Positions 7,205 to 64,000 of a DNA stretch of 64,000 bases are shown one piece after another. The position numbers and the translations under genes were made by a program. Position 1 is the first letter of the stretch. The number at the start of each line of letters is the position of its first letter. The notes beneath the pieces are model-generated. The model made no database searches. It saw nothing but the letters and a program-made list of their open reading frames with translations, and had not been told where the DNA came from. The DNA comes from a virus, in IMG/VR virus record IMGVR_UViG_3300033074_002003; one strand, 5' to 3'.

Positions 7205-7226
7205 CGCAGGGGTCACCAGATAATTC

Positions 7227-8118: not shown

Positions 8119-8154
8119 TGAACATCTTCTGCACATTGTTCTACATTTGCTACA

Positions 8155-8689: not shown

Positions 8690-8697
8690 CGACAAAT

Positions 8698-8769: not shown

Positions 8770-8776
8770 CGAAAAT

Positions 8777-8848
8777 GTCCCTGTAGCTCAGGAGAAGAGC
8801 GGGCGCCTTCTAAGCGCAAGGTCGGGGGTGCGAATCCTCCCAGGGATG
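8777..8848 (+). tRNA. tRNA-Arg (anticodon TCT). CCA is encoded immediately 3' at 8849..8851.
   Basis: Hand-folded. The acceptor pairs GTCCCTG with CAGGGAT, the D-arm is GCTC-AGGAGAA-GAGC, the anticodon loop is CTTCTAA and the T-arm is GGGGG-TGCGAAT-CCTCC. Confidence 0.75.
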
Positions 8849-8862
8849 CCAAGGAAAGAAAG

Positions 8863-9039
8863 ATGCTAATTTCCCCCACGAAGAAGAAGATCGAAGAGCT
8901 GACACAGAGAATTCGCGAGATCAAGAGCGCGAAGGTCCCAGCAGAAGATGTAGCCGAACTCGAGACAGAGCTCAATCAGCTGAAAGAGCAAGTCGAGCAA
9001 GAGTCACAGTCGCAGGGTTCCGCTCTTCTCAAGGGCTGA
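8863..9039 (+). CDS. Small coiled-coil protein. The track ORF 8722..9039 would overlap the tRNAs, so the likely true start is the internal Met at 8863.
   Basis: An aaggaaag RBS precedes the ATG at 8863. The sequence has a K/E-rich heptad-like pattern. Confidence 0.4.
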   Translation: MLISPTKKKIEELTQRIREIKSAKVPAEDVAELETELNQLKEQVEQESQSQGSALLKG

Positions 9040-9069
9040 TTTTACCTCGTTTACGCTACGGAGTCTAAG

Positions 9070-10071: not shown

Positions 10072-10086
10072 CCGATACATATAAGA

Positions 10087-10953: not shown

Positions 10954-11079
10954 GACAAGTGAAGCTCAACTAAAGACGTCCCAGAAAGTCAAATTGATAG
11001 TAGGTGAACATCTATACTGACCTTGTGTAAGTTCTGAGTGTGGTGAGCTTCAATAGCCACACAAGGAAAGGTACAGAGA

Positions 11080-11340
11080 ATGTCAGTAGAGAAGTATACG
11101 CGCCGCCGCGTCACGAACAAGGACGCGAGGATCGTCACAGAGTACAACAGCGGTGCACGCATCACCCGTACCGCTTTCAGGAGCGAGGGCACGTTGAAGG
11201 TGAGCGTGAAGACGCAGGACAACTTCACCTCGCTCAGGGTTCGCTTCCCCGATGGGTTTCACGAGTACTTCAATGGTCGCGAGGCCCGCACCATCTACCG
11301 CGCTCTGAAGGCGCACTACAGCCAGTTCGGCACCGAGTAG
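11080..11340 (+). CDS. Hypothetical small protein.
   Basis: An 86-aa ORF with an aaggaaagg RBS, followed by a terminator. Confidence 0.5.
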   Translation: MSVEKYTRRRVTNKDARIVTEYNSGARITRTAFRSEGTLKVSVKTQDNFTSLRVRFPDGFHEYFNGREARTIYRALKAHYSQFGTE

Positions 11341-11360
11341 TAGCCGTCAGAAGAAGTAGA

Positions 11361-11387
11361 GAAGGGCCCTTCTGGGCCCTTCTTGTT
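11361..11387. terminator. Bidirectional rho-independent terminator (GAAGGGCCC-ttct-GGGCCCTTC, then TTGTT) between convergent genes.
   Basis: A 9-bp GC-rich perfect stem has A-rich sequence upstream and T-rich sequence downstream. It sits between the + gene 11080..11340 and the - gene 11389..11766. Confidence 0.6.
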
Positions 11388-11388
11388 A

Positions 11389-11766
11389 TCACGTGACTTC
11401 TATCTTTCGTTTCTGCGAACCTTCTTTTTTCGGTATTTTGAGATGTAGCACGCCTGCATCGTATTTTGCTGTCATAGAGCCCACGTCATAGCTTTCGTTC
11501 ACAACGAACGTCTGCGAAATAGACTTGCTTGTCCCGACGCTTTTCTTTGCAGCGACAGAGACATTACGGCCCGTGCACTCTACGGTGATGTCCTCTTTGA
11601 GACACCCGGGAACGTCAAAGAAAATCGTGAGCCCATTTTCGTCAGTGCTCTTTTCGAACTTGTGATATCGATCGTCGTCAGCAAAGAGTTCAGAACGAAA
11701 CAGGCGAGCGAGCTGAAGTTCAGGGTACATGTTTTTCCTCCGTGCTCGCAACGATAAAACACACAC
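11389..11766 (-). CDS. Small heat-shock protein of the Hsp20/alpha-crystallin family. The start may be the internal Met, which would give 11389..11730.
   Basis: The alpha-crystallin domain is recognisable: FDVPGCLKEDITVE...VSV...SQTF..E...D...AKYDAGVLHLKIPK. Confidence 0.8.
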   Translation of the reverse strand: MCVLSLRARRKNMYPELQLARLFRSELFADDDRYHKFEKSTDENGLTIFFDVPGCLKEDITVECTGRNVSVAAKKSVGTSKSISQTFVVNESYDVGSMTAKYDAGVLHLKIPKKEGSQKRKIEVT

Positions 11767-12548
11767 AACGAAGCGTACATACCATGATCACAGAATTTGA
11801 TCGAAAAATGAAGTCTCTCGAGAAGTTTTCTTCACAGAGCGTTCCCAGTGGGACGTCTTTTGTTGTGAGGCTCGACGGTAGGTCATTTTCAAAGATGACA
11901 GAGAAGCACTTCAGGAAGCCATTTGACCCGCTGTTCAGCGCGATCATGGATAGAGTGACTGATAGCCTCGTGCGTGAGTTTGATTGCGTCGCGGCATTCA
12001 CACAGAGCGATGAGATTTCGCTGCTGTTTGCACCCGAGAACAAGCTATTTGCCGGCCGGCTCGAGAAAATTGTGAGCGTCACGGCATCGCACGCGTCCGC
12101 TGTGTTCACGAGGGCGTTCACTGACATCGTTACGTTTGACAGTCGAGTGATCGTTCCCGACAGCATCGGCGACCTGTCTTCTTACTTCACGTGGAGATTT
12201 GTGGACGGGTGCAGAAATGCGCTTAACACTGCGTGCTACTGGAACATGCGACAGTCGGGTGAGTCACGCCGTGCGGTGTCGAGGCGACTCGAGAGTGTCT
12301 CCCAGAACGAGAAGCTAGAACTTCTTGGGCAGAGGTGGGAGGACATCGATGAGAGGTTTCGGTTCGGACGTGTAACCGTGTGGGAACAATTCGAAGTAGT
12401 GGGATACAATCCCGTATTGAAAGAAGAGAGGAAGGCTACGCGCAGAGAGCTCGTGAGCTTTACCGATCCGAAGAAATTCACAGAGCTGCGTCACAAATGG
12501 TTCGCAGCAGAGAAAGAGAAAGAAGATGCGAGCAGCCTGGCTATCTGA
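11742..12548 (+). CDS. Thg1-like protein (tRNA-His guanylyltransferase family, 3'-5' nucleotidyltransferase).
   Basis: VVRLDGRSFSK...KPFD aligns with Thg1 VVRIDGKKFHEF...KPND. TQSDEISLLF aligns with GESDEYSFIL. FDSRVIVP aligns with FDSRCVAYP. WRFVDG aligns with WRYVDT. Confidence 0.9.
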   Translation: MLATIKHTQRSVHTMITEFDRKMKSLEKFSSQSVPSGTSFVVRLDGRSFSKMTEKHFRKPFDPLFSAIMDRVTDSLVREFDCVAAFTQSDEISLLFAPENKLFAGRLEKIVSVTASHASAVFTRAFTDIVTFDSRVIVPDSIGDLSSYFTWRFVDGCRNALNTACYWNMRQSGESRRAVSRRLESVSQNEKLELLGQRWEDIDERFRFGRVTVWEQFEVVGYNPVLKEERKATRRELVSFTDPKKFTELRHKWFAAEKEKEDASSLAI

Positions 12549-13323
12549 CATTCACCTCACTGACATTGCGGAGGACAGGGCTCTCGCCTTCTGTGAGAAG
12601 GTACGTGAGCACGAGTGTGATTCTGTCTTTCTCACCGGAGACATCTCAGAGTCGCCCGTCCTCCTCCAACACCTGAAGCTTCTCGACGCGAACATTCAGA
12701 AGCCGATCTACTTCGTGCTCGGAAATCACGATTTCTGGTATTCTTCTGTCCCACACATCTACAACACACTCCCACAGGCGATCTCTGGCCTGAACTTTGT
12801 GCGCTGGATGACAAATCTCGGGCCGCTGCGTCTAGATGACGGAGTCTGCGTCGTAGGTCACGACGGGTGGTATGACTGTAGGGCGGGAGACGTCCGCAAC
12901 TCTCGTTTCATCATGCCAGAGTGGAGCAAGCAGCAGGACTACCAGGGTTCTCGTACGATCGACGACATCATTGAGAAGTCCCAGGCGATGTCAAATCTCT
13001 CGATTACACATTTCAAGAAAGTATTGCCAGATGCTATCGCAAGGTTTGACAAGATCTATATCCTCACACACGTCCCACCATTTGAGGAAACGCACTATCA
13101 CGGTGGCGTGCAAGGAACACCACATTACCAGCCCTACTTTGTCAACAAGATCCTCGGTGAACTCCTCAGAACCGCCGCAAGCCTGCATCCGCGTAAGCAG
13201 TTCGTCGTCCTCGCTGGTCACAGTCACGGACGCGTGAGCAAGACAATCCTTCCGAATCTGACCGTGCACGTTGCGGGAGCACAGCATGGCGCGCCCGAAA
13301 TTCAGCCATTTGTATTCACGTGA
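12526..13323 (+). CDS. Calcineurin-like metallophosphoesterase.
   Basis: The motifs VFLTGDISE, LGNHDFW and GHSHG match metallophosphoesterase motifs I to V. The start overlaps the end of the Thg1-like gene. Confidence 0.8.
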   Translation: MRAAWLSDIHLTDIAEDRALAFCEKVREHECDSVFLTGDISESPVLLQHLKLLDANIQKPIYFVLGNHDFWYSSVPHIYNTLPQAISGLNFVRWMTNLGPLRLDDGVCVVGHDGWYDCRAGDVRNSRFIMPEWSKQQDYQGSRTIDDIIEKSQAMSNLSITHFKKVLPDAIARFDKIYILTHVPPFEETHYHGGVQGTPHYQPYFVNKILGELLRTAASLHPRKQFVVLAGHSHGRVSKTILPNLTVHVAGAQHGAPEIQPFVFT

Positions 13324-13339: not shown

Positions 13340-13696
13340 ATGATTAGGGACCTCGTTCGAGCGATCATTGTCGAAGAGCTCGAGTCGATGAAGAACGACT
13401 ACGTCGTATCTCAGGACCTCGCACAGAAGAAAATTCGTCCCGTGACGTCTGAAGACGTCAAGATTCGATTCCCTGAGTTTCATACGCGTGTTGCAGAGGC
13501 GCTTTTTGAAGAAGAACGTATTGCTGACCTTCGCGGGATGAAGTGGGCATTCTACGCTAGCTCGTATTCACGGGTGACGCCATTTGCGTATGATCCCGTT
13601 ACGGGGGCCGTGTGTTACTGGCACGCTCCCTCACAGCGCGTCAAGCAGTCCGAAAATTCAGAGATCGACAACGCGATAATTCAGATGTCTCGGTGA
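13340..13696 (+). CDS. Hypothetical protein.
   Basis: A 118-aa ORF. Confidence 0.45.
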   Translation: MIRDLVRAIIVEELESMKNDYVVSQDLAQKKIRPVTSEDVKIRFPEFHTRVAEALFEEERIADLRGMKWAFYASSYSRVTPFAYDPVTGAVCYWHAPSQRVKQSENSEIDNAIIQMSR

Positions 13697-14664
13697 ATTT
13701 CATCGTCTGACATCTTGAAAAGTTCACATATTTGACCATCATCAGGTTCCCAGACAACAAATGACATGTTGTTTTGCTTGCAGTATAGAGCAGCAGCTTC
13801 AAATTTTGGGATATTTTTGTCACGAAGTTTGGCGGGTTTGACTTCTACAATGAACGTCTTCCCTGCGTTCGTGTGTACGATAAAATCGGGAACGTAGAAA
13901 TGCTCCGTGCCGTCAACACCAGTGTATTGAATGCGTAGCGATTCATATTCCCACGCGATAACCGACTCAGTTTCATCGAGCTCAATCATCGCTTTTAGTT
14001 CATATGATGACTTGTAGCGACACAAGTTTTTCACGGATTTGTGAGGCGCGTATTCTCCACGTTGCCAAATTCGTTCATTGTTGATTAGCTTTTTTGACAT
14101 CACTTCTGAGAGATGCTGTCGAGTTTTTTCATACGTTCCACACAACGCTCTAGTGTTGTATGTTTTCTTGCAAGAAGCGTCACGGCGAATCCTAATTTCG
14201 GGATTTTTGGCCCAAAACTCTTTCCAGTTTTCGCTCATTTTTTGTCTGAACTCAACAGACGTTGTTGCTTTACGTACAGCTTCACTACGTCGTCTGAGTA
14301 CATTGTCTGTCAAAAAATCGCGCATACGTTGTGCACGGAGCTTGCCCTCTTCAGCGTGCTCAGCGTAGTAACGTTTCATGTTTTTTGAATTTTTCACACC
14401 AACCAGTCGCTTGGTTTCTTCTGACATGGACACTTCATTGTGACCCCGAACATAGAAGTTGAAAGTACATGTGACATCATGAAATTTGACAGCAATACCA
14501 CATCCACATTTACACACTGGCCGTTTTCCGCCATGTTGTGTTTGGATTGCATACAGTTCCCAATCGAGATCGTGTTCAGATTTAACATGTTTGCGTAATT
14601 TTACGTTTGAATTGCTTTCAAACGCACAGATTGCACATTTTCGAATTTGCCAAGTCACAGTCAT
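13681..14664 (-). CDS. Homing-endonuclease-like protein with a C2H2-like zinc finger, a CKCGCG motif, NUMOD3-like repeats and a PD-(D/E)XK nuclease domain.
   Basis: The N-terminus carries CAICAF...HVKSEH and CKCGCGIAVKF. The C-terminus reads YVPDFIVH...IVEVKP. The gene is on the opposite strand to its neighbours and is AT-richer than the flanks. Confidence 0.7.
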   Translation of the reverse strand: MTVTWQIRKCAICAFESNSNVKLRKHVKSEHDLDWELYAIQTQHGGKRPVCKCGCGIAVKFHDVTCTFNFYVRGHNEVSMSEETKRLVGVKNSKNMKRYYAEHAEEGKLRAQRMRDFLTDNVLRRRSEAVRKATTSVEFRQKMSENWKEFWAKNPEIRIRRDASCKKTYNTRALCGTYEKTRQHLSEVMSKKLINNERIWQRGEYAPHKSVKNLCRYKSSYELKAMIELDETESVIAWEYESLRIQYTGVDGTEHFYVPDFIVHTNAGKTFIVEVKPAKLRDKNIPKFEAAALYCKQNNMSFVVWEPDDGQICELFKMSDDEIHRDI

Positions 14665-26856: not shown

Positions 26857-27357
26857 TTGGATGCGAAAATCGCTGAAGTTCTTGACGTTACAACTCTCCT
26901 TCCAAATAAGTACGAGCCAAAGCGAAAAGGGCGATGGTTGCTTGCGATAGAGGGTATTGACGCCTTCCTCTGCAAGACAGCCCAGAGGCCGCAGATCCAG
27001 ACAGAGCGCCTCGAGATCCCGTTCATGAACTCGCGTCGGTACATCGCGGGCAAGACGACTTTTCAGGAGATGTCAGTGACGCTCATGGACCCAGTCGCTC
27101 CCTCGGGCGCCCAGCAGGTCATGGAGTGGCTGCGCCTGCACTTCGAGTCTGTCTCGGGACGTGCGGGTTACGCAGACTTCTACAAGCGCGACGTGCAGCT
27201 CAAGTTGACAGACCCCACGGGAACGGTCGTCGAACTATGGGACGTGAAAGGCGCTTTCATAACCAACGTCAACTTCGGAGAGCTTACGTACGAAGACCAA
27301 AATGCCATCGAGATTCAGCTGACGTTGTCTTACGACAACGCTGTACTTCAGTTCTGA
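26857..27357 (+). CDS. Tail tube protein, T4 gp19-like.
   Basis: CKTAQRP...EIPFMNSRRYIAGKTTFQEMSVTLMD aligns with T4 gp19 CKATALP...KIPVGFMNRKINVAGDRTFDDWTVTVMND. The C-terminus GAFITNVNFGELTYEDQNAIEIQLTLSYD aligns with GLWPTNVGELQLDWDSNNEIQTFEVTLALDY. Confidence 0.8.
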   Translation: MDAKIAEVLDVTTLLPNKYEPKRKGRWLLAIEGIDAFLCKTAQRPQIQTERLEIPFMNSRRYIAGKTTFQEMSVTLMDPVAPSGAQQVMEWLRLHFESVSGRAGYADFYKRDVQLKLTDPTGTVVELWDVKGAFITNVNFGELTYEDQNAIEIQLTLSYDNAVLQF

Positions 27358-27383
27358 TCTCGACTCTGGATCGTTGCACCGCT

Positions 27384-27420
27384 CGAAAGGCCCTACGATG
27401 GGCCTTTCGACGTTTAATTT
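27384..27420 (+). terminator. Rho-independent terminator (CGAAAGGCCC-tacgat-GGGCCTTTCG, then ACGTTTAATTTT) after the tube gene.
   Basis: A 10-bp perfect stem and a T-rich tail lie immediately downstream of the tube gene stop. Confidence 0.55.
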
Positions 27421-35084: not shown

Positions 35085-35158
35085 GGCTTATAGCTAGTGT
35101 ACGGCGCGCTTTACGATCTGTTCAGCACGTGTAGTATTTCGTACGTATAGGGAGTCAA

Positions 35159-50550: not shown

Positions 50551-51744
50551 ATGGCTGCTCGAAAGAAAAACGAGGGGTCATCGCCTGTCGCCACCGCAAC
50601 CGCGGTGGCGACCGCGTATGACGACTTTGCTGACGAACTCATCGTGTCTCTCAACAAAGAGCACGGTTCTCGAATCGCGTACAATCTAGGTACAGACACC
50701 TCTCCTACACACGTGAAGAGGTGGATCTCGACGGGTTCAGTCTTCCTAGACTACATCATCTCTAACAGGAAGGGTGGAGGCATTCCCGAGGGACGAATCA
50801 TCGAGATTTACGGCCCGCCCTCGACTGGAAAGTCGCACATCGCGACACAGATCGCTCGCTCGACGCAACAGCTCGGTGGCATCGTTGTGTACATCGACAC
50901 AGAGACAGCGACATCACCCGAGAACCTCGGGATGCTCGGCGTCGACGTCTCCAAGAGGTTCATCTACGTTGACGAACACTGCACAGAAGAGGTGTTCAAG
51001 GTCATCGAGTCGACGATCCTGAAGGCGAAGGCGCGCATGAAGGATGTGCCCATCACTATCATCTGGGACTCGGTCGCGGCGACGTCACCGAAAGCCGAGC
51101 TGGACGGAGAGTACGACAAGGACACCATCGGTCTCCAGGCACGCGTCATCTCAAAGGGCATGAGAAAAATCACGGGAATCATATCAGAGAATGATGTGAC
51201 GCTCGTGTGTCTCAATCAGACGCGCACGAAGGTCGGCGTGATGTATGGCGATCCCATGACAACACCAGGTGGCATGGCGATTCCATATCACGCGTCGGTA
51301 CGTCTCAAGATTACGGGCGGACAACACGTGAAGAAGAACGACGGGTCGGTCATCGGGATTGACATCAACGTTACAGCAGTGAAGAACAAGGTCGCACCTC
51401 CATTCAGGCAGGCTTCATTTGCGATTCACTTCGGACGCGGAATTGTCGAGCACGAGGCGCTCTTTGACACGCTTCGAGAGTCGTGTGACAAGGAGAAATT
51501 TGTCATCGACGGGAAGCAGATTTCTATCGAAGGCATGGGATCGTGGAAGGCACTTGTGGTAACAGACGTTGCAACCTCCAAAGAGGTCGTCAACAGGAAG
51601 TTCTACAAGGCCGATTTCATTGAGGTCATCAACGAGCCAGAGACAAAGAAGTACGTCGAAGATCTCATCGAAGCAGTCCTCACCAAGAAGCTCGGCGCGA
51701 AAGTAGAGGATGCCAGCGCCAAAGAAGAGGCGGTGACGTCGTGA
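50551..51744 (+). CDS. UvsX/RecA-family recombinase.
   Basis: GGIPEGRIIEIYGPPSTGKSH matches RecA [21 protein letters not shown] (Walker A). The length is about 397 aa. Confidence 0.9.
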   Translation: MAARKKNEGSSPVATATAVATAYDDFADELIVSLNKEHGSRIAYNLGTDTSPTHVKRWISTGSVFLDYIISNRKGGGIPEGRIIEIYGPPSTGKSHIATQIARSTQQLGGIVVYIDTETATSPENLGMLGVDVSKRFIYVDEHCTEEVFKVIESTILKAKARMKDVPITIIWDSVAATSPKAELDGEYDKDTIGLQARVISKGMRKITGIISENDVTLVCLNQTRTKVGVMYGDPMTTPGGMAIPYHASVRLKITGGQHVKKNDGSVIGIDINVTAVKNKVAPPFRQASFAIHFGRGIVEHEALFDTLRESCDKEKFVIDGKQISIEGMGSWKALVVTDVATSKEVVNRKFYKADFIEVINEPETKKYVEDLIEAVLTKKLGAKVEDASAKEEAVTS

Positions 51745-55490: not shown

Positions 55491-58400
55491 ATGACACAAG
55501 CACAGCAATCACAGGCAAAGAGTTTCAGCAGTGACGAAGTTGTAGAGAGAACGGCAGAGTATTTCGGCGGCGATAAGATGGCAGGAGCTGTATTCTTGAA
55601 GTACGCTCTGCCTGCAGATGACGGCGGTTTCTTGGAACTGTCGCCGCCTGACATGCACGCTAGACTCGCTAGAGAATTGGCTCGGATAGAGAACAGATAC
55701 TCTAACCCAATGTCCGAGGAAGAAATTCTAGGGTTGCTCAGCAGGCCCTCGCACAGGAAGCTGGGCATGGGTCCCATCATCCCGCAGGGCTCGCCGATGG
55801 CGGGCATCGGAAATACGAAGCAGTTCCAGAGCATCTCAAATTGCTTCGTGATCGACTCTCCTTACGACTCTTTCGGGGGAATCTTCCATACTGACGAGGA
55901 AGAGGCCGAGATCATGAAGAGGCGCGGGGGTGTCGGATTTGACGTCTCGACGCTTCGCCCGAAAGATGTGAAGACCTCGAACGCTGCTGGCACGACAGAC
56001 GGCATCGGTGTGTTCCTCGAGCGCTACAGCGCGACATGTCGCGGCACCGCACAGAACGGACGCCGCGGCGCGCTCATGCTCACGATCTCAATCAGACACC
56101 CCGAGATCGAGACGTTCATCAACATCAAGCGTGACCTGAAGAAGGTGACAGGCGCAAACATCTCAATCCGTGTCACAGACGACTTCATGGTTGCCGTCGA
56201 GAACGATGAATACTTCACGCTGCAGTGGCCGGTAGACGTGCCGCTCTCAGAGGCGAAGATCACTCGAGAAGTCAGAGCTCGTGACATCTGGGACCAGATC
56301 ATCGATGCGGCCTGGAACAGCGCCGAGCCCGGTGTTCTCTTCTGGGATACCGTGAAGAGAAATTCTCCGGCTGACGCATACGCCTCGGTTGGATTTAGTT
56401 CAGTCTCGACAAATCCATGTGTTGTAGGAGACACGTTGATCGCTGTTGCTGACGGTAGAAATGCTGTGTCAATTAGACAATTGGCAGAAGAGGGTCGCGA
56501 CGTACCTGTGTATTCTACTGATATTGCTACAGGAAAGGTTGAGATCAAGTGGGGAAGATCTCCTAGACTGACAAAAGTTCAAGCAGAGGTTTGGAAACTG
56601 ACACTTGATGATGGCACGTGTGTCATTGCGACACCTGATCACAAGATTTTGCTTAGAAATTTGACGTATGTGAATTTGCAGGATCTCAAGTCAGGTGACT
56701 CAATTTTCCCATTTTCGACGTTCGACTCTAATGGATATCGTCAGGTATGCAATACTGGCGTACCCATGACGGGTGGTGCAAGGCGGAACAGACGTCAATA
56801 TCGACTGATTCACGAATTTTTTAACGGGAGCACTGATTCAAAGTTGTTTGCGATTCATCATTGTGATTTTGATTCTAGAAATGACAGAATCGAAAACTTG
56901 AAAGTGATGACGCACGATGAACATCGAGAACTACATTCGCGCCTAATGATTGGTGATAATAATCCGTATCACAGGATGTCATCTGAATGGAAGCTAAAGT
57001 TTGCAAAACATTCTGGCGAATCTAATGGTAGATTTTCGGGCCACACTAACGAGCAGCTTCTAGAAGCTGGGCGTCGTGTATTCGAAGAAAATGGAAAGAT
57101 AACACGAGCTCTTTGGAAAGAATATGCCAAGAAGCACGCGTTCCCGCAATTTCTTGCAAATCAATTTAGATTTGGAAGTTGGCAAAATTTTGCCAACCAA
57201 GTCTCGAGCAATCACAAAGTTGTTTCTGTTGAAAAAATCGGTACAGAAGACGTTTACAACATCACCGTAGATGACAATCACAACTACCACGTCATCACTT
57301 CTTTGGACGAAAATGGTGTTGTCTCTTCTGGTATTTGTGTCAAAAATTGTGGGGAAATTCCTCTTTCGAGTGGGGACTCGTGCCGGCTACTCGTAATCGA
57401 TCTCACACATTTCGTCGTTTCGCCATTTACCCCCGAGGCTCACTTTGATTTCACTGAGTTTGAAAGGGTCGTCGGAAAGGCCCAGCGACTCATGGACGAT
57501 ATCGTTGACCTCGAGGTCGAAGCAGTCGACAGGATCATCGAGAAGATCGAGTCAGATCCAGAACCCGAGTACATCAAGGCACGCGAGCTCTCACTCTGGC
57601 GTCGAATCAGGGACACTGGGTTGAGAGGACGCAGGACCGGATTCGGTGTCACCGCGCTGGGCGACGCCCTCGCTCTTCTTGACCTGAAGTACGGACAGTT
57701 CGATGCGATCTCGATGACCGATCGAATCTATCGTAGCTTGGCACTGGGCGCCTACAGGTCGAGCGTCGACCTCGCGGAAGAGCGGGGCGCGTTCCCGGCA
57801 TACGATCCGAAGCTCGAGGCCGGTCACCCGTTCTTGAGTCGCATCCGCGCCGAAGATCCAGCTCTCGCAGAGAAGATGGATCGCGTCGGGCGTCGAAACA
57901 TCGCGCTCACGACAACTGCGCCGGTCGGTTCTACCTCGATGCTCACGCAGACTACAAGCGGTATCGAGCCGCTGTTCAAGCCGTTCTACGTCCGGAAAAA
58001 GAAGGTCAGCGGCGCGACGGAACCGAACGCAGAGCTGATCGTCGACGAGATGGGCGATAGGTGGCAGAAGTTCAACGTCTACCATCACTACCTCAAAGAG
58101 TGGATGGACATCACTGGGAACTCTAACATTGACGAGTCTCCGTATGCAGGTGCCTCGGCAAACGAAATCGACTGGCTTGGGTCTGTCGCGATGCAGGCCG
58201 CTGCACAGAAGTGGGTGTGTCACAGCATCTCAAAGACGTGCAACCTGCCGAAAGACGTGAGCCATGATGTTGTGTCTGACGTCTACATGAATGCGTGGAA
58301 GACGGGTTGCAAGGGCTTCACGATCTACAGGGACGAATCTAGAGACGGCGTGCTCGTGTCTGAGGACGCTGTGATGTTCGACGTGAAGAAGCGCACAGAT

Positions 58401-59141
58401 GGCGTTCCCACACGTGAGCTCGAGCGACAGGTCGAGATCGGCGAGCGCTTCGCGAAGTACATGCCGTCCGGGTATGTCTCATTCCTGCAACAGGTGAGAG
58501 ACGCGATCGCCGCGCGCAAAAACCCATCGCTCGGGGCCGTCGTAGATCGCGTAGTCGAGACGAAGCTGCACTCAGAGAAGAGGCCCAAGGAACTTCCTTG
58601 CGAAATTCACCGTGTCAACGTGAGGGCGAAAGACGACAGCGGCGACATCACGACACAGACGTACATCGTGCTTCTTGGCTTGTTGAACGGGAAGCCCTAT
58701 GAGATCTTCTGCGGCCTCTCGGAACACGTCGACGTTCCGAAGAAGTGCAAGAATGGCGTGCTCGTGAAGAATGGCAAGAAGGCCGGCGTCGCGACGTACA
58801 ACCTCAGGATCCCGATCGGAGACGATGACGACGCGATCGTGCTGAAGGACGTCGTGAATCTCTTTGAGAACGCCACATACGGTGCTTTCACGAGGATCCT
58901 GTCCCTCGCGCTGCGCCACGAGATTCCGCTGCAATTTGTTGTGGAACAGCTGCAGAAGGACAAGTACTCAGACATGCAGAGTTTTTCTCGTGTCATTGCG
59001 AGGGTCCTGAAGCACCACATTCTAGACGGTACGCCCGTCTCGGGTGAGAAGAAGTGTGATAGCTGCGGGGCCGAGGGGACGCTTGTCTACGAGGAGAAGT
59101 GTACCAAGTGCACCGCGTGCGGGAACGGGAAGTGCGGATAG
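55491..59141 (+). CDS. nrdJ: Class II (adenosylcobalamin-type, NrdJ-like) ribonucleotide reductase interrupted by an intein immediately before the catalytic NPCGE cysteine.
   Basis: ISNCFV, GGVGFDVSTLRP and a C-terminal zinc ribbon (CDSCGAEG...CTKCTACGNGKCG) are present. The extein junction reads STNP|C...N|CGEIPL. Confidence 0.85.
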   Translation: MTQAQQSQAKSFSSDEVVERTAEYFGGDKMAGAVFLKYALPADDGGFLELSPPDMHARLARELARIENRYSNPMSEEEILGLLSRPSHRKLGMGPIIPQGSPMAGIGNTKQFQSISNCFVIDSPYDSFGGIFHTDEEEAEIMKRRGGVGFDVSTLRPKDVKTSNAAGTTDGIGVFLERYSATCRGTAQNGRRGALMLTISIRHPEIETFINIKRDLKKVTGANISIRVTDDFMVAVENDEYFTLQWPVDVPLSEAKITREVRARDIWDQIIDAAWNSAEPGVLFWDTVKRNSPADAYASVGFSSVSTNPCVVGDTLIAVADGRNAVSIRQLAEEGRDVPVYSTDIATGKVEIKWGRSPRLTKVQAEVWKLTLDDGTCVIATPDHKILLRNLTYVNLQDLKSGDSIFPFSTFDSNGYRQVCNTGVPMTGGARRNRRQYRLIHEFFNGSTDSKLFAIHHCDFDSRNDRIENLKVMTHDEHRELHSRLMIGDNNPYHRMSSEWKLKFAKHSGESNGRFSGHTNEQLLEAGRRVFEENGKITRALWKEYAKKHAFPQFLANQFRFGSWQNFANQVSSNHKVVSVEKIGTEDVYNITVDDNHNYHVITSLDENGVVSSGICVKNCGEIPLSSGDSCRLLVIDLTHFVVSPFTPEAHFDFTEFERVVGKAQRLMDDIVDLEVEAVDRIIEKIESDPEPEYIKARELSLWRRIRDTGLRGRRTGFGVTALGDALALLDLKYGQFDAISMTDRIYRSLALGAYRSSVDLAEERGAFPAYDPKLEAGHPFLSRIRAEDPALAEKMDRVGRRNIALTTTAPVGSTSMLTQTTSGIEPLFKPFYVRKKKVSGATEPNAELIVDEMGDRWQKFNVYHHYLKEWMDITGNSNIDESPYAGASANEIDWLGSVAMQAAAQKWVCHSISKTCNLPKDVSHDVVSDVYMNAWKTGCKGFTIYRDESRDGVLVSEDAVMFDVKKRTDGVPTRELERQVEIGERFAKYMPSGYVSFLQQVRDAIAARKNPSLGAVVDRVVETKLHSEKRPKELPCEIHRVNVRAKDDSGDITTQTYIVLLGLLNGKPYEIFCGLSEHVDVPKKCKNGVLVKNGKKAGVATYNLRIPIGDDDDAIVLKDVVNLFENATYGAFTRILSLALRHEIPLQFVVEQLQKDKYSDMQSFSRVIARVLKHHILDGTPVSGEKKCDSCGAEGTLVYEEKCTKCTACGNGKCG
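56418..57347 (+). mobile_element. Intein of 310 aa with an embedded HNH homing-endonuclease domain inside nrdJ.
   Basis: It starts with CVVGDTLIAV (block A) and ends VYNITVDDNHNYHV...NGVVSSGICVKN followed by C (blocks F/G). HNH reads HHCDFDSRNDRIENL...HDEH. The intein is about 42% GC versus about 58% in the flanking extein. Confidence 0.8.
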
Positions 59142-59200: not shown

Positions 59201-60187
59201 ATGGGACACAGCGCTCGAGTCATCGCTGACTCTCGGACTCAGTGGGGTGAAAGACTAATCTCGCTTGAGGTAAAACTGCCCCGCGTAGTTTTGGCCGAAT
59301 TCAATACTCATCGTGTGTTCTCACGCAACTCTGCGTCATCTCGTGCCATCCCAGTCGAGAAGATGTTGAGGATGGTCAAGGAAGATCCCTACATCCCGAC
59401 ACACTGGGGGCAGAACCAGAAGGGCATGCAGGCAGACGTAGAGCTCGATGAGGCGTACCGGGCGTGGGCCATTTGCGAGTGGATGCGCAATCGAGATGAA
59501 GCGATACGCGGCGCAAACGAGCTGCTCAACCTCGGCGTTCACAAGCAGATCACGAATCGCCTCCTAGAACCGTTCATGTGGCACACTGTCGTCGTGACTG
59601 CCACGGAATGGAGCAACTGGACGCATCTCCGCGACAACAAGATGGCGCACCCAGAGATCCAAGCGCTCGCGGTGTGCATCTCGGACGCGATTCGCGCCTC
59701 GTCTCCGAGATCGCTTCGAGACGGTGAATGGCACCTACCGTTTGTGTCGGAGGACGAGGTCAGCGAGAGAAATGACGTCAACTTCTGGAAGAAGGTTTCG
59801 TCAGGACGGTGTGCGAGGGTGAGTTACCTGACACACGACGGCGTGCGTGACCCGCAGGCAGACGTAGACCTCCACGACAGGTTGCTGACTGCGGGTCACA
59901 TGAGCCCATTTGAGCACGTCGCTAGACCCATGGGACCGATTGAGCGCGAGTGTACGAAGAGGTTCAACGTCTTCTTCGAAGACGGTACGGTGCTAAATCA
60001 GGTCACGCTTCCCACGCGCGAGTTCTGTGACAGTTACGGTCTTGCAACCCCGCGCACGTGGGAGGACTGGACCGGGGTGAAGATCAAGCGCGTGCAGGAG
60101 ACACACTTCTGCGGCAACTTTGACGGGTTCATTCAGTACAGAAAAGAGATCCCTTTCGAGTGGGACATCATGGGAGAGAAATCGTGA
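59201..60187 (+). CDS. ThyX-like (flavin-dependent thymidylate synthase family) protein with a non-canonical signature (THR instead of RHR). The start was chosen at the internal Met after the nrdJ stop.
   Basis: EFNTHRVFSRNSASSRA aligns with the ThyX motif EFxRHRxxSxNxxSxR except that the first Arg is replaced by Thr. Confidence 0.55.
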   Translation: MGHSARVIADSRTQWGERLISLEVKLPRVVLAEFNTHRVFSRNSASSRAIPVEKMLRMVKEDPYIPTHWGQNQKGMQADVELDEAYRAWAICEWMRNRDEAIRGANELLNLGVHKQITNRLLEPFMWHTVVVTATEWSNWTHLRDNKMAHPEIQALAVCISDAIRASSPRSLRDGEWHLPFVSEDEVSERNDVNFWKKVSSGRCARVSYLTHDGVRDPQADVDLHDRLLTAGHMSPFEHVARPMGPIERECTKRFNVFFEDGTVLNQVTLPTREFCDSYGLATPRTWEDWTGVKIKRVQETHFCGNFDGFIQYRKEIPFEWDIMGEKS

Positions 60188-60768
60188 AAGCGCTGATCTC
60201 AATTGAGGGAGGAGATTCAACAGGGAAGGCGACGCAGGCTATGTTTCTCGAGGCGCGCCTGCAGTCAATGGGCGTCTCGGCGATTCGCTTCGAGATCCCT
60301 GCGCACGGACCGATCACGCGCCCGCTCATCTACTTCATGCTCTACGTGAACCTAGCCGGGAGGTTTCCGCGCGTCTTCCACACGTTGCAGTTCATCAACA
60401 AATTCCTGTTCCAGTTCTTCGTTCTGAGGTTGGTCTCGCTCTTCTACGACTGTGTCATCCTCGATCGCTGGCACGGTTCTTACTGGGTGTATGGCATCGA
60501 ATCCGGTCTCGATCGGACGAGCACGCTCATGAAGATGAGCTCGTTGCTAAAAGAGCCGGATCTGATCTTTTGCCTCTCGGGACCCCGTCACGTCGTTGAG
60601 AGGCGAGACGAGTACGAGCGCAACGATGACATGCAGTCTCGCGTCGCTCGTTCGTATGTCGAATGGGCTCGTTCGAAGAACAACTGTCACATCGTGAACT
60701 CAGATCGCGACAAGTTGTCTGTACATCAAGATATTTGGAACGTAGTTTCAGAGAAGACAAACCTTTGA
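60160..60768 (+). CDS. tmk: Thymidylate (dNMP) kinase. The true start is probably the GTG at 60184, which overlaps the ThyX-like stop.
   Basis: The P-loop is ISIEGGDSTGKAT. A DRW motif reads ILDRWHGSYWVYG. The length is about 195 aa. Confidence 0.65.
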   Translation: MGHHGREIVKALISIEGGDSTGKATQAMFLEARLQSMGVSAIRFEIPAHGPITRPLIYFMLYVNLAGRFPRVFHTLQFINKFLFQFFVLRLVSLFYDCVILDRWHGSYWVYGIESGLDRTSTLMKMSSLLKEPDLIFCLSGPRHVVERRDEYERNDDMQSRVARSYVEWARSKNNCHIVNSDRDKLSVHQDIWNVVSEKTNL

Positions 60769-60777
60769 GAGGGTGAA

Positions 60778-61014
60778 ATGGCAAGCGAAGAACTTCAGGT
60801 GAGTGATAGCGTGTGGCAGCGAGTCGTGCAGATCGTTCAGGAGGGCATGCTCACGATGACGGATGTGTCTGACGCGCTGAGGCTCGTCAGGTTGCAGGAA
60901 GTCGATGGGAAGCTCGAGCTCTCAGATTCGTACAAGGGATACGTCGCGACCCTTCACGACAAGCTCGTCGAAGAGGGAAAGAGACTGAGCGCATCGAGGA
61001 CGTCTGATGACTGA
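60778..61014 (+). CDS. Small hypothetical protein.
   Basis: A 78-aa ORF with a gagggtgaa RBS. Confidence 0.4.
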   Translation: MASEELQVSDSVWQRVVQIVQEGMLTMTDVSDALRLVRLQEVDGKLELSDSYKGYVATLHDKLVEEGKRLSASRTSDD

Positions 61015-61459
61015 CAGTGAGTTCAAGGGCGTGCTACGAAAGTGGTCAGACTTTGATCCGAATGATGGTCTGGAAGACGTGCGCACGAGGAGGGGTGATT
61101 TCCTTCTAACGATGTTTGAACAGCAGTCACAGTTCATGCAGCTCCTCGAAGAGAAGCGCTCGTTTCCGAAGTGGCCCGTTGACCTCACGTCGAAGGTGGG
61201 ACAGCAAGCGTGTCGCGATGCATCACTGGGTGGCATCGAAGAGTGGTTCGAGGCGCTGAAACACCTCAAAAATTGGAAATCGCACCGAGCGACAGAGGTG
61301 AAAGACGTCGATCGAGCAGAGTTCCTCGAGGAGATGTCTGACGCGTTGCACTACTTCGTAGAGGTAATCCTGCTCGCAGACATCTCACCGGAAGAGCTCT
61401 ACGACGCATATATGAAGAAAGGTGCCACAAACGTGGCCCGAATCAACGGAGGATACTGA
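61007..61459 (+). CDS. MazG-like all-alpha NTP pyrophosphohydrolase (dCTPase-like).
   Basis: The EExxE/EExxD helical motifs are GIEEWFEALKHLK and EFLEEMSDALHYFVEV. Confidence 0.45.
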   Translation: MTDSEFKGVLRKWSDFDPNDGLEDVRTRRGDFLLTMFEQQSQFMQLLEEKRSFPKWPVDLTSKVGQQACRDASLGGIEEWFEALKHLKNWKSHRATEVKDVDRAEFLEEMSDALHYFVEVILLADISPEELYDAYMKKGATNVARINGGY

Positions 61460-61647
61460 TGTCGTTTCTGAAGGCAATCGGGTGGGTAGTTCTGGGTCTG
61501 TTCGCAATCGAGGTCGCGGGCTGTGCGTGGGTGTTCTCGCAGCACGAAGCCTGTCCGGATGGTTACGATCCCCAGGTACAGGGTTGTAAGGGAATGCCGA
61601 AGGCGGGCGCGTCTTCGTCGGCAACTGACGCAGGGAGTGACGGATGA
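61459..61647 (+). CDS. Small membrane protein with a single predicted transmembrane helix.
   Basis: AIGWVVLGLFAIEVAGCAWVF is a hydrophobic segment. Confidence 0.4.
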   Translation: MSFLKAIGWVVLGLFAIEVAGCAWVFSQHEACPDGYDPQVQGCKGMPKAGASSSATDAGSDG

Positions 61648-62183
61648 TCAACGTTTCATCCACGGCACCCATGTGGACGGGCGGGAATACATTTCCGCTC
61701 GCTAACGGGACAGGTGTTAGACCGCTTACAGTCGATCAGACTGCAAAACCCCTTCGATTCGGAGACGAATCCACGCCAGTGCTTCCGGACATGTGGCCAA
61801 TGCCGTATGAGGTCATACCTACCAAGAAAATCGTGCCAAATCCACCGGCGAGTGAGGAGATCTTGCGGCGGTGGATTTCTATGCAAGGTGAGCACAACAA
61901 TCTCGTTTCTAGCTTTAGGACGGAAACTGTAGGTGAACGTCTCATTGCTGCGATTGACATCCCGGGTGTCAAGAAGGGAACAGTTGATGTATCACTCGAT
62001 GGTGCTGTGATTTCTGTTGTGTGCACGCGAGCTGATATAGGCACGCTTGTCAGCGCGAAATATACAGTCCCGCGCGAGTATTCTGTGTCACCTGACGATA
62101 TCGAGGCGTGGCACGATGACGGTGTTCTCTCGATCGCGTTTATGCGAATTTCGCAGGGACGCGTCAAAATCGGTGTGAAGTAA
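61644..62183 (+). CDS. Hypothetical protein.
   Basis: A 179-aa ORF. Confidence 0.45.
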   Translation: MINVSSTAPMWTGGNTFPLANGTGVRPLTVDQTAKPLRFGDESTPVLPDMWPMPYEVIPTKKIVPNPPASEEILRRWISMQGEHNNLVSSFRTETVGERLIAAIDIPGVKKGTVDVSLDGAVISVVCTRADIGTLVSAKYTVPREYSVSPDDIEAWHDDGVLSIAFMRISQGRVKIGVK

Positions 62184-62199
62184 TTCCTTTCTGAACACA

Positions 62200-62232
62200 C
62201 TGCATGCACTCTGTAATATGAGTGCATGCAGT
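62200..62232 (+). promoter_or_regulatory. A 12-bp inverted repeat (CTGCATGCACTC - 8 nt - GAGTGCATGCAG) whose right arm contains the ATG of the nucleotidyltransferase gene.
   Basis: Read directly from the sequence. This is the same arrangement as the hairpin at 7227..7260. Confidence 0.45.
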
Positions 62233-63308
62233 TTGACGTTTCAGAGCGGACGATTTACCTCGCAGTTCACGGCAGTACCGCGTACGGCACGAATACACCC
62301 GAGTCAGATCTTGATATCAAGGGTGTGTGTGTTCCACCCGCGTGTTACTACACGGGTTTTTCGTATGTCTTCGAGCAGGAAGAGCGTATGGTGTCGAAAG
62401 GTCACTCAGAGGACAGGGTCACCTATTCCGTGGAGAAGTTCTTCTCGCTCGCAGCGGATTGCAATCCCAACATCATCGAGGTGCTGTTCGTTGACGATTC
62501 AGACGTCCTGAAGTGCAATGACCTCGGGAAGCTGATGAGGGAAAATCGCGATCTCTTCCTCTCGAAGAGAGCGAAGCACACATTCAGTGGGTACGCACAC
62601 GCGCAGCTTCACAGGATCCAGACGCATCGCAGGTGGTTGCTCGACGCCTCGAAGTACGAGTCAACGCTTCCAAAGCGCAGCGATTTCGACCTGCCCGAAT
62701 TCGAGTCCAAGAAGGACGCGAACCAGATTCTCACCGCCCTCGCTCTTGTCCAGAAGAGGCTCGACGAGTGGAACGTTGACTTCAGAGAATTTGACAACGC
62801 CGAGAGGATTCGCCTACAGAACAAGCTCGCCCAATTTTTCGTGGAGGCTGGCGTCCTCGGCGATGACCTCTGGTCTCGAGCGGCCCAGGCTGTTTTCGGC
62901 GTGGACGAGAACCTGATCCATCGCCTACAACGCGAACGCGCGTACGCGAATCAGTGCTCTGACTGGGAGAAGTACGCTAACTGGAAGCGTTCGCGCAATC
63001 CGAAGCGCGCTGCTCTCGAGGCGAAGTTTGGGTACGACACGAAGCACGGCGGCCATTTGATCCGTCTCATGAGGATGTGCAAGGAAATCCTCTCAGGACA
63101 GGGCGTCATCGTGAAGCGACCCGATGCCAAGGAGATCCTCGCGATCAGGAACGGCTTGTGGTCGTATGAGAAGCTCATCGAGGAGTCTGAGAAGCTCGAG
63201 GCAGAGTGCAACGCGCTCTACGATACGTCAGCGCTTCCGCACAAGCCGAACGTTGCGCGACTTAATGAGTTGTGTTCGCAGATCGTGACACTTGGGATAG
63301 TGAGGTAG
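62226..63308 (+). CDS. Pol-beta-superfamily nucleotidyltransferase of unknown specificity.
   Basis: VHGSTAYGTNTPESDLDIKGV is a GS-x9-DxD NTase motif. The remaining ~300 aa form a helical C-terminal domain. Confidence 0.65.
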   Translation: MQFDVSERTIYLAVHGSTAYGTNTPESDLDIKGVCVPPACYYTGFSYVFEQEERMVSKGHSEDRVTYSVEKFFSLAADCNPNIIEVLFVDDSDVLKCNDLGKLMRENRDLFLSKRAKHTFSGYAHAQLHRIQTHRRWLLDASKYESTLPKRSDFDLPEFESKKDANQILTALALVQKRLDEWNVDFREFDNAERIRLQNKLAQFFVEAGVLGDDLWSRAAQAVFGVDENLIHRLQRERAYANQCSDWEKYANWKRSRNPKRAALEAKFGYDTKHGGHLIRLMRMCKEILSGQGVIVKRPDAKEILAIRNGLWSYEKLIEESEKLEAECNALYDTSALPHKPNVARLNELCSQIVTLGIVR

Positions 63309-63309
63309 C

Positions 63310-64000
63310 ATGTCACACTTTTCTTGGCCCGAAATTGACGGATTTCACTCGGTGAGGCGAACTCTCGTTCACTACCCGCACCTTTTGGGCGGAAGAAATA
63401 CAGTCACGTACCGTGGGAAGGTGAAGCTTCACGGCACAAACGCGGGGATTTACTTCCGTGCGGGCAGATTCACGGCGCAGAGCAGGACGGCTGTCATTAC
63501 GCCGACGTCTGACAACATGGGATTCGCGAAGTGGGTCGACGAGAGGACAGACGCGCTCGCGGAAGCATACAAGCGCATGGACAGTGACACGGTCATCTTC
63601 GGTGAGTGGTGCGGGCCGAGCGTCCAGCGCGGCGTTGCGCTCTCACAGCTCAAGGAACGCATCTTTGCAGCCTTTGCTGCCTACAAGATCTCCGCTCGCG
63701 GCGAACCGACAGATGCTCTCGTTACTTCTCCCGAAGAACTCGCCAGACTGGTAGGTGGTATCCCGGGAGCGTATGTCCTGCCCTGGCACGGTGACACGTT
63801 CGACGTCCCGTGGCTCGATCCAGCAGAGGAGCTCGAGCCGATCGTTGCGCGCATCAATGACGTTGTCGCTGATGTGGAAACTGTCGACCCGTGGGTGCGC
63901 GATACATTCGGTGTCGAGGGAACGGGAGAGGGACTCGTCTACTACCCTATCTCACACGGCGGGCGCGAGAACTTCACGAACATGTCCTTCAAGGCGAAGG
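63310..64000 (+). CDS. Second Rnl2-family RNA ligase-like protein, 3'-truncated by the window end.
   Basis: Motif I is GKVKLHGTNAGIYF (compare T4 Rnl2 KIHGTN). Motif III is VIFGEWCG. The frame stays open to the last base. Confidence 0.65.
   Translation, partial: MSHFSWPEIDGFHSVRRTLVHYPHLLGGRNTVTYRGKVKLHGTNAGIYFRAGRFTAQSRTAVITPTSDNMGFAKWVDERTDALAEAYKRMDSDTVIFGEWCGPSVQRGVALSQLKERIFAAFAAYKISARGEPTDALVTSPEELARLVGGIPGAYVLPWHGDTFDVPWLDPAEELEPIVARINDVVADVETVDPWVRDTFGVEGTGEGLVYYPISHGGRENFTNMSFKAK

Follow-up and report, generated by a model that had tools for sequence, protein, structure and literature searches.

A putative RNA-repair operon of a huge uncultivated phage with a predicted leaderless promoter interleaved with a hairpin at its start codon

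The "RNA ligase-associating Pol-beta" (RlaP) family was named from the linkage of its genes to RNA ligase genes, and T4 NrdC.11 is a member; according to one report, RlaP adds one or two nucleoside monophosphates (NMP) to the 3'-OH of RNA, prefers mimics of broken tRNA, and is inactive on DNA and protein (PMC12776372). In jumbo phages, RlaP is the most prevalent nucleotidyltransferase (NTase) of this kind, and its distribution mirrors that of RNA ligases (PMC7824862). At the level of gene regulation, two described phage arrangements are relevant. The early read-through RNA of T4 gene e (lysozyme) and of I-TevI folds and hides the translation start, and the RNA from an internal promoter is translated (PMC3014915). 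The PeSL cassettes of T4-like phages consist of an intergenic stem-loop and a sigma-70-like promoter, are thought to stop and restart transcription, and are linked to inserted accessory genes (PMC2839356, PMC4122927). Here we describe a locus near the end of a 64,000-nucleotide stretch of viral DNA (IMG/VR record IMGVR_UViG_3300033074_002003; hereafter the window), where an RlaP-family gene is followed by an RNA ligase gene and the RlaP start codon lies in a hairpin interleaved with promoter-like boxes.

We consider it probable that the locus combines an RNA-repair operon with a composite insulator-promoter joint. Taken by itself, the assignment of the cassette (RlaP, Rnl2-like ligase, and polynucleotide kinase-phosphatase, Pnkp) to RNA repair is held with high confidence, and the promoter-hairpin mechanism is preferred here but is far from assured. 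The gene cassette is a kind of phage system that has already been described, and the embedded hairpin promoter is the less ordinary part of the locus. The coordinates of the features are collected in Table 1.

The gap between the stop codon of the upstream gene and the ATG at 62226 is 42 nt. Positions 62199-62232 read ACTGCATGCACTC-TGTAATAT-GAGTGCATGCAGT, an inverted repeat of 13 perfect base pairs around an 8-nt loop, and the repeat reaches 16 bp at 94% complementarity when extended. An earlier note on this DNA had described the repeat as 12 bp long, one pair too few, and had rightly placed the start codon inside it: ATG 62226-62228, which opens the 360-aa open reading frame (ORF) 62226-63308, lies in the 3' arm. 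The minimum free energy of the 66-nt RNA 62185-62250 was -34.7 kcal/mol (z = -7.07), a stability that none of 200 shuffles attained, and the stem-loop was kept when folded in a 136-nt context (z = -4.34). Any RNA reading through from the upstream Hsp20-like gene would carry the whole hairpin, and in such read-through RNA the predicted pairing probability of the AUG is 1.00. An RNA beginning at 62226, by comparison, is predicted to have no structure beyond that of shuffled sequence (-12.6 kcal/mol, z = 0.02). The window contains two perfect short-loop hairpins of 13 bp or more, and 200 dinucleotide shuffles produced none; with 11 bp as the lower limit, there are four versus a shuffle mean of 0.125. 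The 151-nt hairpin region is identical across six contigs with six different sample accessions, and the hairpin is therefore not an assembly artefact. The RlaP ATG at 62226 is not preceded by a Shine-Dalgarno sequence. An Rfam search of the hairpin returned only sub-threshold look-alikes of miRNA precursors and no family for the element.

The start-codon-sequestering hairpin proposed in the earlier note thus agrees with the predicted hiding of the AUG, but the description is incomplete, since the hairpin is interleaved with a conserved promoter. When the 60 nt 5' of the RlaP ATG were aligned among nine clade members, TGAACA was found at -34/-35 from the ATG in seven of them, amid spacers that could not otherwise be aligned. 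A second element, TAnnnT, was located at -12/-13 (-12 to -7 or -13 to -8), again in seven of the nine, with the variants TAATAT, TAAATT, TAAAGT, TAGAAT, TATGTT, TAGTAT, and TACTGT. The distance from this -10 box to the RlaP ATG is 6 or 7 nt in the clade and 6 nt at 62226. In the window, TGAACA-N15-17-TAnnnT occurs four times (0.76 expected), a number reached by no shuffle, and all four copies sit immediately before ORF starts, with 6-11 nt between the -10 box and the start. Versions with one mismatch precede the minus-strand gene starting at 26744 and an MT-A70 gene just past the window end. When the window is extended with the longer contig L004, a motif copy is seen upstream of position 71281 (L004 19056). 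The motif can be read as a promoter because minus-strand genes in a mostly plus-strand genome need promoters of their own, and the additional copies suggest, as far as the sequence can tell, that this phage makes a class of transcripts with no leader or almost none.

At sigma-70-type promoters, transcription starts about 7 nt past the -10 hexamer, with a preference for a purine. Applied to the position of TAATAT, this rule therefore places the predicted start at A62226 or next to it, and the mRNA would be leaderless. The absence of a Shine-Dalgarno sequence before RlaP would thereby be explained; the downstream genes of the operon do have such sequences (GAGG, GAGG, and AGGAG). When 60000-64000 was scanned for consensus terminators and promoters, the hairpin and the promoter both went without a call, the latter having been missed because the strict TTGACA/TATAAT rule overlooks TGAACA/TAATAT.

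On these grounds, we propose that the inverted repeat is a composite insulator-promoter joint, in which the 5' arm would serve as the promoter spacer, the loop would carry the -10 element, and the 3' arm would comprise the discriminator, the AUG, and the 4 nt after it. Transcripts begun at the promoter would have the A of the AUG as their first base, would lack the 5' arm, and would be translated as leaderless mRNA. Read-through RNA from the Hsp20-like gene would include the full hairpin, which would conceal the AUG, itself without a Shine-Dalgarno sequence, and may in addition cause attenuation or termination of transcription. The joint would neutralize the transcription arriving from the nucleotide-metabolism genes and restart that of the repair operon. 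Leaderless translation and the effect of the hairpin are both deduced from sequence.

Relatives show this layout again with unrelated stem sequences, both before RlaP and before the ligase gene; the -10 element is then either in the loop or where the 3' arm begins (Table 1). Register between the arms and the -35 and -10 boxes is seen in six independent cases. Four of the relatives' hairpins contain a total of six G.U pairs, all on the sense strand; in DNA, and likewise in antisense RNA, these positions would be mismatched, which favors a structure at the mRNA level over an operator. No two stems are alike, and this speaks against a DNA-binding protein common to them. The ligase gene is preceded by a Shine-Dalgarno sequence but by no promoter where it directly follows RlaP (the window, L094, and L096). 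In three relatives (L090, L091, and L095), an extra gene of 150-159 aa separates RlaP from the ligase, and all three carry the promoter-hairpin module before the ligase. The inserted ORF (L090 7138-7617, L091 7169-7630, and L095 2835-3287) is rich in Gly, Ala, and Ser, and has the appearance of an accessory-gene cassette that either introduces a restart signal or needs one.

The closest regulatory precedents share some of these properties and differ in others. The logic of the hairpin is the same as that in T4 gene e and I-TevI, in that the RNA started at the promoter has no 5' arm, although in the window this is a prediction. The T4 genes, however, use a late TATAAATA promoter and mask the Shine-Dalgarno sequence, whereas in the window the promoter is sigma-70-like, the AUG itself is in the stem, and the mRNA is predicted to be leaderless. 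With PeSL, the window element shares the intergenic stem-loop and the sigma-70-like promoter, and the relatives with an inserted gene have the module before the ligase. In PeSL, however, the stem-loop is adjacent to the promoter and the motif is relatively conserved, whereas here the stem is interleaved with the promoter and its 3' arm reaches the AUG. The repeated, sequence-conserved element that PeSL offers for recombination was not found: the stem sequences show no relationship from copy to copy or from phage to phage, and only the short promoter boxes are common.

We tentatively extend this proposal to a clade of huge phages in which dedicated leaderless promoters (TGAACA-N16/17-TAnnnT-6/7 nt-AUG) may be overlaid, in register, by sequence-variable hairpins and so form portable insulator-restart joints; on the sequences at hand, this is possible rather than probable. 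Such joints would make the downstream gene rely on its own promoter alone and would render the read-through RNA untranslatable, and they appear to accompany gene insertions, as at the ligase of the relatives with the extra gene. If true, portable joints would be a regulatory grammar undescribed for jumbo phages. Transcript mapping of phiKZ found no leaderless mRNAs (PMC8244752), and that of AR9 found 5' untranslated regions of 26-491 nt (PMC5312081). A leaderless promoter class in a huge phage would thus be mildly new, although it is still a prediction. If confirmed, it would be a first indication that some huge phages rely on leaderless mRNAs, and the joint would represent a compact, sequence-independent design rule for gene insulation in dense phage genomes.

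The second hairpin of at least 13 bp in the window is at the start of a patatin-like phospholipase gene (7249-8118; PF01734 Patatin, 2e-33). The earlier note had regarded the two arrangements as the same. The geometry is indeed equal, but the patatin hairpin has no TGAACA or TAnnnT at the matching positions, nor any Shine-Dalgarno sequence or recognizable promoter. Relatives (51-59% identity) lack the hairpin: two have a separate GC-rich terminator and GGAGG, and in the third the gene overlaps the upstream gene. The patatin hairpin was accordingly rejected as an example of the same promoter device. In a relative, L100, a motif copy precedes the homologous position after patatin.

The patatin hairpin enters into the first alternative, namely a pure cis-acting translational gate without an internal promoter, in which the upstream transcript would be the sole source of RlaP and the AUG would be locked until the stem is opened by temperature, an RNA helicase, RNase III, or a phage protein. 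The RlaP stem is perfect and very stable, the AUG is inside it without a Shine-Dalgarno sequence, the whole structure including the outer helix amounts to about 25 bp and thus has the dimensions of an RNase III substrate, and the patatin gene has an equivalent hairpin without a recognizable promoter. A gate does not account for the fixed distance of TGAACA and TAnnnT from the ATG while the remaining spacer diverges, for the presence of the motif before other genes, one of them on the minus strand, or for the several relatives that retain the promoter without the hairpin. We consequently consider the gate unlikely.

About equally improbable is the view that the hairpin is a terminator or a 3'-end stabilizer of the Hsp20-like gene and that its overlap with the start codon is a by-product of tight packing. 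The structure begins 2-16 nt past the upstream stop codon, the ligase hairpin of L091 is immediately followed by TTTTTT, the stem-loops of PeSL work as terminators in T4-like phages (PMC2839356), and other strong hairpins in the window resemble terminators (11359-11384, and 27383-27410 with its T-rich tail). The RlaP hairpin, however, has TTTGACGTTT as its tail, elicited no call in the terminator scan, lies at the promoter end of the spacer and not right after the stop codon, and belongs to the six cases in which the arms are in register with the promoter boxes. The terminator view overlaps with the insulator-promoter joint and does not exclude it. As to the terminator-like hairpins themselves, that at 27383-27410 has an 11-bp, GC-rich stem, directly follows the tail-tube (gp19-like) gene (26857-27357), and looks like an ordinary intrinsic terminator, with the in-frame ATG of the next ORF (27398) at the junction of its loop and 3' arm. 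That at 11359-11384, with a GGGCCC stem and a tetraloop, lies between the end of ORF 11040-11396 and converging minus-strand ORFs and looks like a bidirectional terminator.

A DNA-level inverted repeat, either the operator of a dimeric repressor or a cruciform over the -10 box that controls the RlaP promoter, is very improbable: although the palindrome is centered on the -10 hexamer and its half-sites are 21 bp apart from center to center (two helical turns), each repeat differs in sequence even within one clade and leaves no common operator, the G.U pairs of four relatives are mismatches in DNA and on the antisense strand, and perfect 13-bp arms are atypical of operators.

Several points weigh against the insulator-promoter joint. 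Most promoters of this class have no hairpin, including those at 8155 and 11040 and those of RlaP in L091, L095, and L096, and the hairpin must therefore be optional. The canonical U-tract 3' of the hairpin is absent, and the terminator scan of 60000-64000 made no call. The patatin hairpin repeats the geometry but has no such promoter, so that the two may not share a single function. The transcription start, leaderless translation, and any termination are predictions, and the host may or may not use this promoter type or favor leaderless mRNAs.

Some further candidates were examined and rejected. Translational coupling by a ribosome ending at the upstream stop codon is unlikely, as the distance from the stop to the first base of the inner stem is 16 nt at RlaP, 23 nt at patatin, and 26 nt at the 27383 hairpin. 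A GUA loop motif shared for recognition by a protein, which the earliest hairpins had suggested, was dropped, because further hairpins have the unrelated tetraloops UCUU, GCGA, and GAAG. The hairpin is not a trait of the RlaP gene family, given that no comparable hairpin of at least 13 bp was found at the RlaP start in 80 IMG/VR loci and LR745208.1 (33-51% identity); it is a trait of the close clade only. A strong hairpin at 50577-50622 (perfect core of 11 bp; 81% over 21 nt; -38 kcal/mol when folded in context) is inside the 5' end of ORF 50551-51744, where it encodes an Ala/Thr-rich stretch. It was rejected as a start-codon trap, since it is within the coding region and its 3' arm has an ATG that is not in frame.

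The gene behind the hairpin encodes a Pol-beta-type NTase of 360 aa, the class and length given in the earlier note, and belongs to the RlaP family. The Pfam model RlaP (PF10127) matched residues 8-133 with 69.4 bits (gathering cut-off 23, E = 4.9e-19), all 120 of the homologs listed carry PF10127, and the phage NTase family phrog_388 matched over the full length (2e-64). In an alignment of 36 sequences, G16, S17, D28, and D30 are invariant, which gives the motif G16-S17-x10-D28-x-D30, one residue longer than the GS-x9-DxD spacing read previously; the same alignment offers two candidate residues for the third carboxylate, D63 (conserved to at least 90%) and E85 (invariant). The AlphaFold model (pLDDT 93.3) comprises an alpha/beta NTase domain followed by a helical domain (helices 116-359). 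The PfRlaP crystal structure likewise has an N-terminal NTase domain and a C-terminal helical domain, and this layout matches that of our model as far as a comparison by description goes (PMC12776372). Homologs were found by tblastn in 1,707 phage records, including T4 nrdC.11 (residues 8-127, 31.5% identity, 4e-8) and Lak megaphages, and matches among predicted viral structures were to phage NTases such as Bacillus phage G gp218 (1.4e-15).

The adjacent ligase gene starts 1 nt after the NTase stop codon (TAG 63306-63308; ATG 63310), and its Shine-Dalgarno sequence, GAGG, is inside the end of RlaP, which is consistent with translational coupling of the two genes. Both motifs pointed out earlier, KLHGTN and FGEWCG, are present, and the sequence downstream of the window, taken from identical contigs, completes the protein to 334 aa with all of its motifs. 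The ligase matched PF09414 (4.6e-15) and, over its full length, phrog_548. Motifs I, Ia, III, IV, and V of covalent nucleotidyltransferases all occur in it, and in an alignment of 35 sequences K39-L-H-G-T-N, S58-R59, F-G98-E99-W, E207-G-L-V210, and K228-A-K230 are invariant. The best solved relative by sequence was T4 Rnl2 (2hvq, 1.1e-5). In the structural model (pLDDT 94.3), residues 252-333 form helices alone and there is no OB fold; full-length T4 Rnl2 headed the Foldseek results (2hvr 2.7e-11, and 2hvq), followed by a trypanosome editing ligase and a Naegleria RNA ligase, with DNA ligases much lower. The idea that this is the DNA nick-sealing ligase of the phage is thus without support, and the complete protein is not an ATP-dependent DNA ligase with an OB domain.

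The operon continues past the window end in the order NTase (360 aa), ligase (334 aa), p185 (185 aa), and Pnkp (309 aa). The Pnkp is of the T4 type; it matched phrog_505 over the full length (3.7e-83) and has the P-loop GIPASGKS and the HAD motif DLDGT. The earlier proposal that the NTase and ligase form a pair for RNA 3'-end repair, and a second cassette of this sort, is therefore strengthened by a Pnkp two genes on from the Rnl2-like ligase. The activities of the enzymes are deduced from characterized members of their families. By this analogy, Pnkp would turn 2',3'-cyclic phosphate and 5'-OH ends into ligatable ends, RlaP would replace lost 3' nucleotides, and the Rnl2-like ligase would join the 3'-OH to the 5'-phosphate. 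The likely task of the operon is to reverse the cutting of tRNA, or of other RNAs used in translation, by host anticodon nucleases or other ribotoxins, and its targets would include the products of "smart" nucleases that excise a nucleotide as well.

Comparison with the known repair systems clarifies what is shared. The RlaP modules of T4 (NrdC.11), Pseudomonas (RtcB-RlaP-RtcA), and jumbo phages have the same NTase family, the GS and DxD motifs, adjacency to an RNA ligase, and a link to end healing (PMC12776372, PMC7824862), and the expected common chemistry is that an RNA 3'-OH receives one or two NMP before ligation (PMC12776372). The identity to T4 NrdC.11 is about 31% and confined to the N-terminal 120 residues. 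In contrast to the RtcB/RtcA systems, the partners in the window are a 5'-phosphate Rnl2-like ligase and Pnkp, and the end-chemistry mismatch of the RtcB systems is thereby removed: because RlaP is paired with these two enzymes, the end chemistry fits without extra assumptions. T4 tRNA repair by Pnkp with Rnl1 and Rnl2 likewise depends on a phage-encoded kinase-phosphatase and an ATP-dependent ligase, and the Rnl2 motifs and architecture are shared; the window ligase, however, represents a divergent clade, RlaP heads the operon, and a conserved protein of 142-185 aa lies between the ligase and Pnkp.

Some observations limit the assignment of the cassette. The Pfam RlaP match covers only residues 8-133 of the NTase. 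The ligase scored 28.5 bits with the NCBIfam Rnl2 equivalog TIGR02307 (cut-off 197) and is therefore called Rnl2-like in architecture, not a T4 Rnl2 equivalog. In the distant phages in which RlaP is beside Pnkp, no homolog of the window ligase was found nearby.

The pair could also be a non-repair one, with the NTase acting in signaling or anti-defense or as an antibiotic-type enzyme and the ligase sealing nicks in DNA. Rnl2-type enzymes are able to act on nicked duplexes, and the best solved structures for the NTase in Foldseek were kanamycin NTase, Hailong HalB (a defense NTase), and MNT. These matches are, however, marginal (E of at least 2e-3, TM 0.2-0.28) and limited to the NTase core, that to the aminoglycoside enzyme (E = 2e-3, TM 0.2-0.27) included; the PDB copies searched yielded no RlaP structure, and a PDB sequence search with the NTase gave no match at E <= 1. 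The CCA-adding-like, MNT-like, signaling, or anti-defense roles considered earlier found no backing: in scans with Pfam, PADLOC, and NCBIfam, the NTase matched no CCA-adding, CD-NTase, or defense-system model, NCBIfam MntA scored 17.6 bits against a cut-off of 60, the only Pfam match apart from RlaP was a generic NTP_transf_2 match over 20 residues, and no PADLOC defense model matched the NTase, the ligase, p185, or Pnkp. Against a non-repair pair there are in addition the strong RlaP hidden Markov model match and the full-length phage NTase PHROG match, the Pnkp in the same gene string, the helical C-terminal domain of the ligase in place of an OB domain, and the inactivity of RlaP enzymes on DNA or protein in vitro (PMC12776372), and we give this alternative very little credence.

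The window is part of a huge uncultivated phage. The NTase protein is residue-for-residue identical on 21 public contigs; one of these, L006, equals the window over the shared 11.8 kb, and L004 (305,889 bp) differs at 16 positions, all in the intein of ribonucleotide reductase. Tail-sheath and tail-tube genes and three tRNA genes are also found in the window, and a blastn search of 61600-64000 revealed no DNA similarity to deposited phages. The close relatives, all of them metagenome assemblies with RlaP 57-66% identical, keep the RlaP-ligase(-Pnkp) order within a longer series: ribonucleotide reductase, ThyX, thymidylate kinase, small genes, Hsp20-like gene, RlaP, ligase, small genes, Pnkp, and ClpP. 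The Hsp20-like gene precedes RlaP in L091, L093, L095, and L096 as well. Among distant IMG/VR phages (33-51% identity), about 18 of 80 loci have Pnkp downstream of RlaP at a distance of 0.1-2.5 kb. The gene pair offers a further example of large phages repairing nuclease-cut translation RNAs with RlaP, RNA ligase, and Pnkp, and the cassette would be a natural test bed for the role recently proposed for RlaP against nucleotide-excising nucleases.

Table 1. Positions of the hairpin, promoter motifs, and genes discussed in the text (window numbering unless a contig is named)
Feature	Position	Strand	Remarks
-35-like hexamer TGAACA	62192-62197	+	Conserved box; CTGAACA from 62191
Extended RNA stem-loop (predicted)	62185-62250	+	Outer helix 62185-62197 with 62234-62250, around the inner hairpin
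5' arm of 13-bp hairpin	62199-62211	+	ACTGCATGCACTC; promoter spacer
8-nt loop	62212-62219	+	TGTAATAT; carries -10-like TAATAT at 62214-62219
3' arm	62220-62232	+	GAGTGCATGCAGT; 6-nt discriminator, ATG 62226-62228, 4 further nt
Promoter motif (putative) before ORF start 8155	8119-8147	+	7-nt gap from -10 box to start codon
Promoter motif (putative) before ORF start 11040	11005-11033	+	6-nt gap
Promoter motif (putative) before ORF start 35084	35096-35124	-	11-nt gap
Promoter motif (putative) before ORF start 62226		+	TGAACA-N16-TAATAT; 6-nt gap
Upstream gene, 179 aa, weakly Hsp20/alpha-crystallin-like	61644-62183	+	Pfam HSP20 E = 0.012, under family cut-off
RlaP-family Pol-beta NTase, 360 aa	62226-63308	+	PF10127, phrog_388
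Shine-Dalgarno GAGG for ligase	63302-63305	+	Within last RlaP codons
Rnl2-like ATP-dependent RNA ligase	63310-64000	+	First 230 of 334 aa in window; rest from L006/L004 11085-12089
p185, conserved protein without assigned function	L004 12096-12653		Just past window end, between ligase and Pnkp
T4-type Pnkp, 309 aa	L004 12663-13592		Outside window; AAA_33 6e-16, HAD_PNKP 1.7e-51
Patatin-gene hairpin	7227-7239 / 7248-7260	+	13-bp perfect stem, 8-nt loop, ATG 7249 in 3' arm, z = -6.5
RlaP hairpin, relative	L092		14-bp stem, ATG at end of 3' arm
RlaP hairpin, relative	L093		15-bp stem, TATGTT in loop
Ligase hairpin, relative	L090		TGAACA-N16-TAGAGT-7-ATG; 12-bp stem
Ligase hairpin, relative	L091		TGTTCA-N17-TAGGAT-6-ATG; 16-bp stem, then TTTTTT
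Ligase hairpin, relative	L095		TGAACA-N17-TAGATT-7-ATG; 13-bp stem

The protein encoded between the ligase and Pnkp, p185, gave only weak family matches (Rv2632c-like, E = 0.075; phrog_17910, 9e-4). Pro, Ala, Ser, and Thr are abundant in its N-terminal part, and its C-terminal domain contains ...IATLA...C.PGDKFDRKVGRNIAEGRA. L091 and L092 have homologs of it at the equivalent position (149 and 142 aa, respectively). The closest GenBank relative (44.6% identity) is LR745208.1, a 485-kb uncultured phage, which has no ligase adjacent to RlaP. Two ORFs of about 250 aa (5226-6008 and 7160-7900) flank RlaP there, and their translations share long near-identical stretches; they look like duplicated mobile endonuclease genes.

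The phage carries two RNA-repair clusters, the other being at 8.6-13.3 kb of the window. This tRNA/RNA-repair cluster (8616-13323) begins with tRNA-Leu(CAA), tRNA-Trp(CCA), and tRNA-Arg(TCT) at 8616-8851 and also contains a Thg1-like 3'-5' nucleotidyltransferase (11742-12548) and a calcineurin-like phosphoesterase (12526-13323). Its ligase (9070-10071, 333 aa) combines an N-terminal PHA02142 OB fold with PF09414 and matches DraRnl TIGR02306 over the full length (127 bits, cut-off 151). The earlier note had called the ligase beside RlaP a second Rnl2-type enzyme. A further PF09414 ligase does exist in the window, but it is DraRnl-like with an N-terminal OB fold and is not an Rnl2. It was detected by Pfam alone, and neither phmmer nor a motif regular expression found a second homolog of the Rnl2-like ligase in the window.

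N-terminal domains of TnsA-like endonucleases were recognized in ORFs 3-527 (3.2e-9) and 13681-14664 (minus strand, 1.4e-14), the latter within the RNA-repair/tRNA region. The gene for the large subunit of ribonucleotide reductase (55491-59141) has an intein with an HNH-type endonuclease inside, and the 16 substitutions at 57800-58076 in this gene are the sole differences between otherwise identical contigs of different samples.

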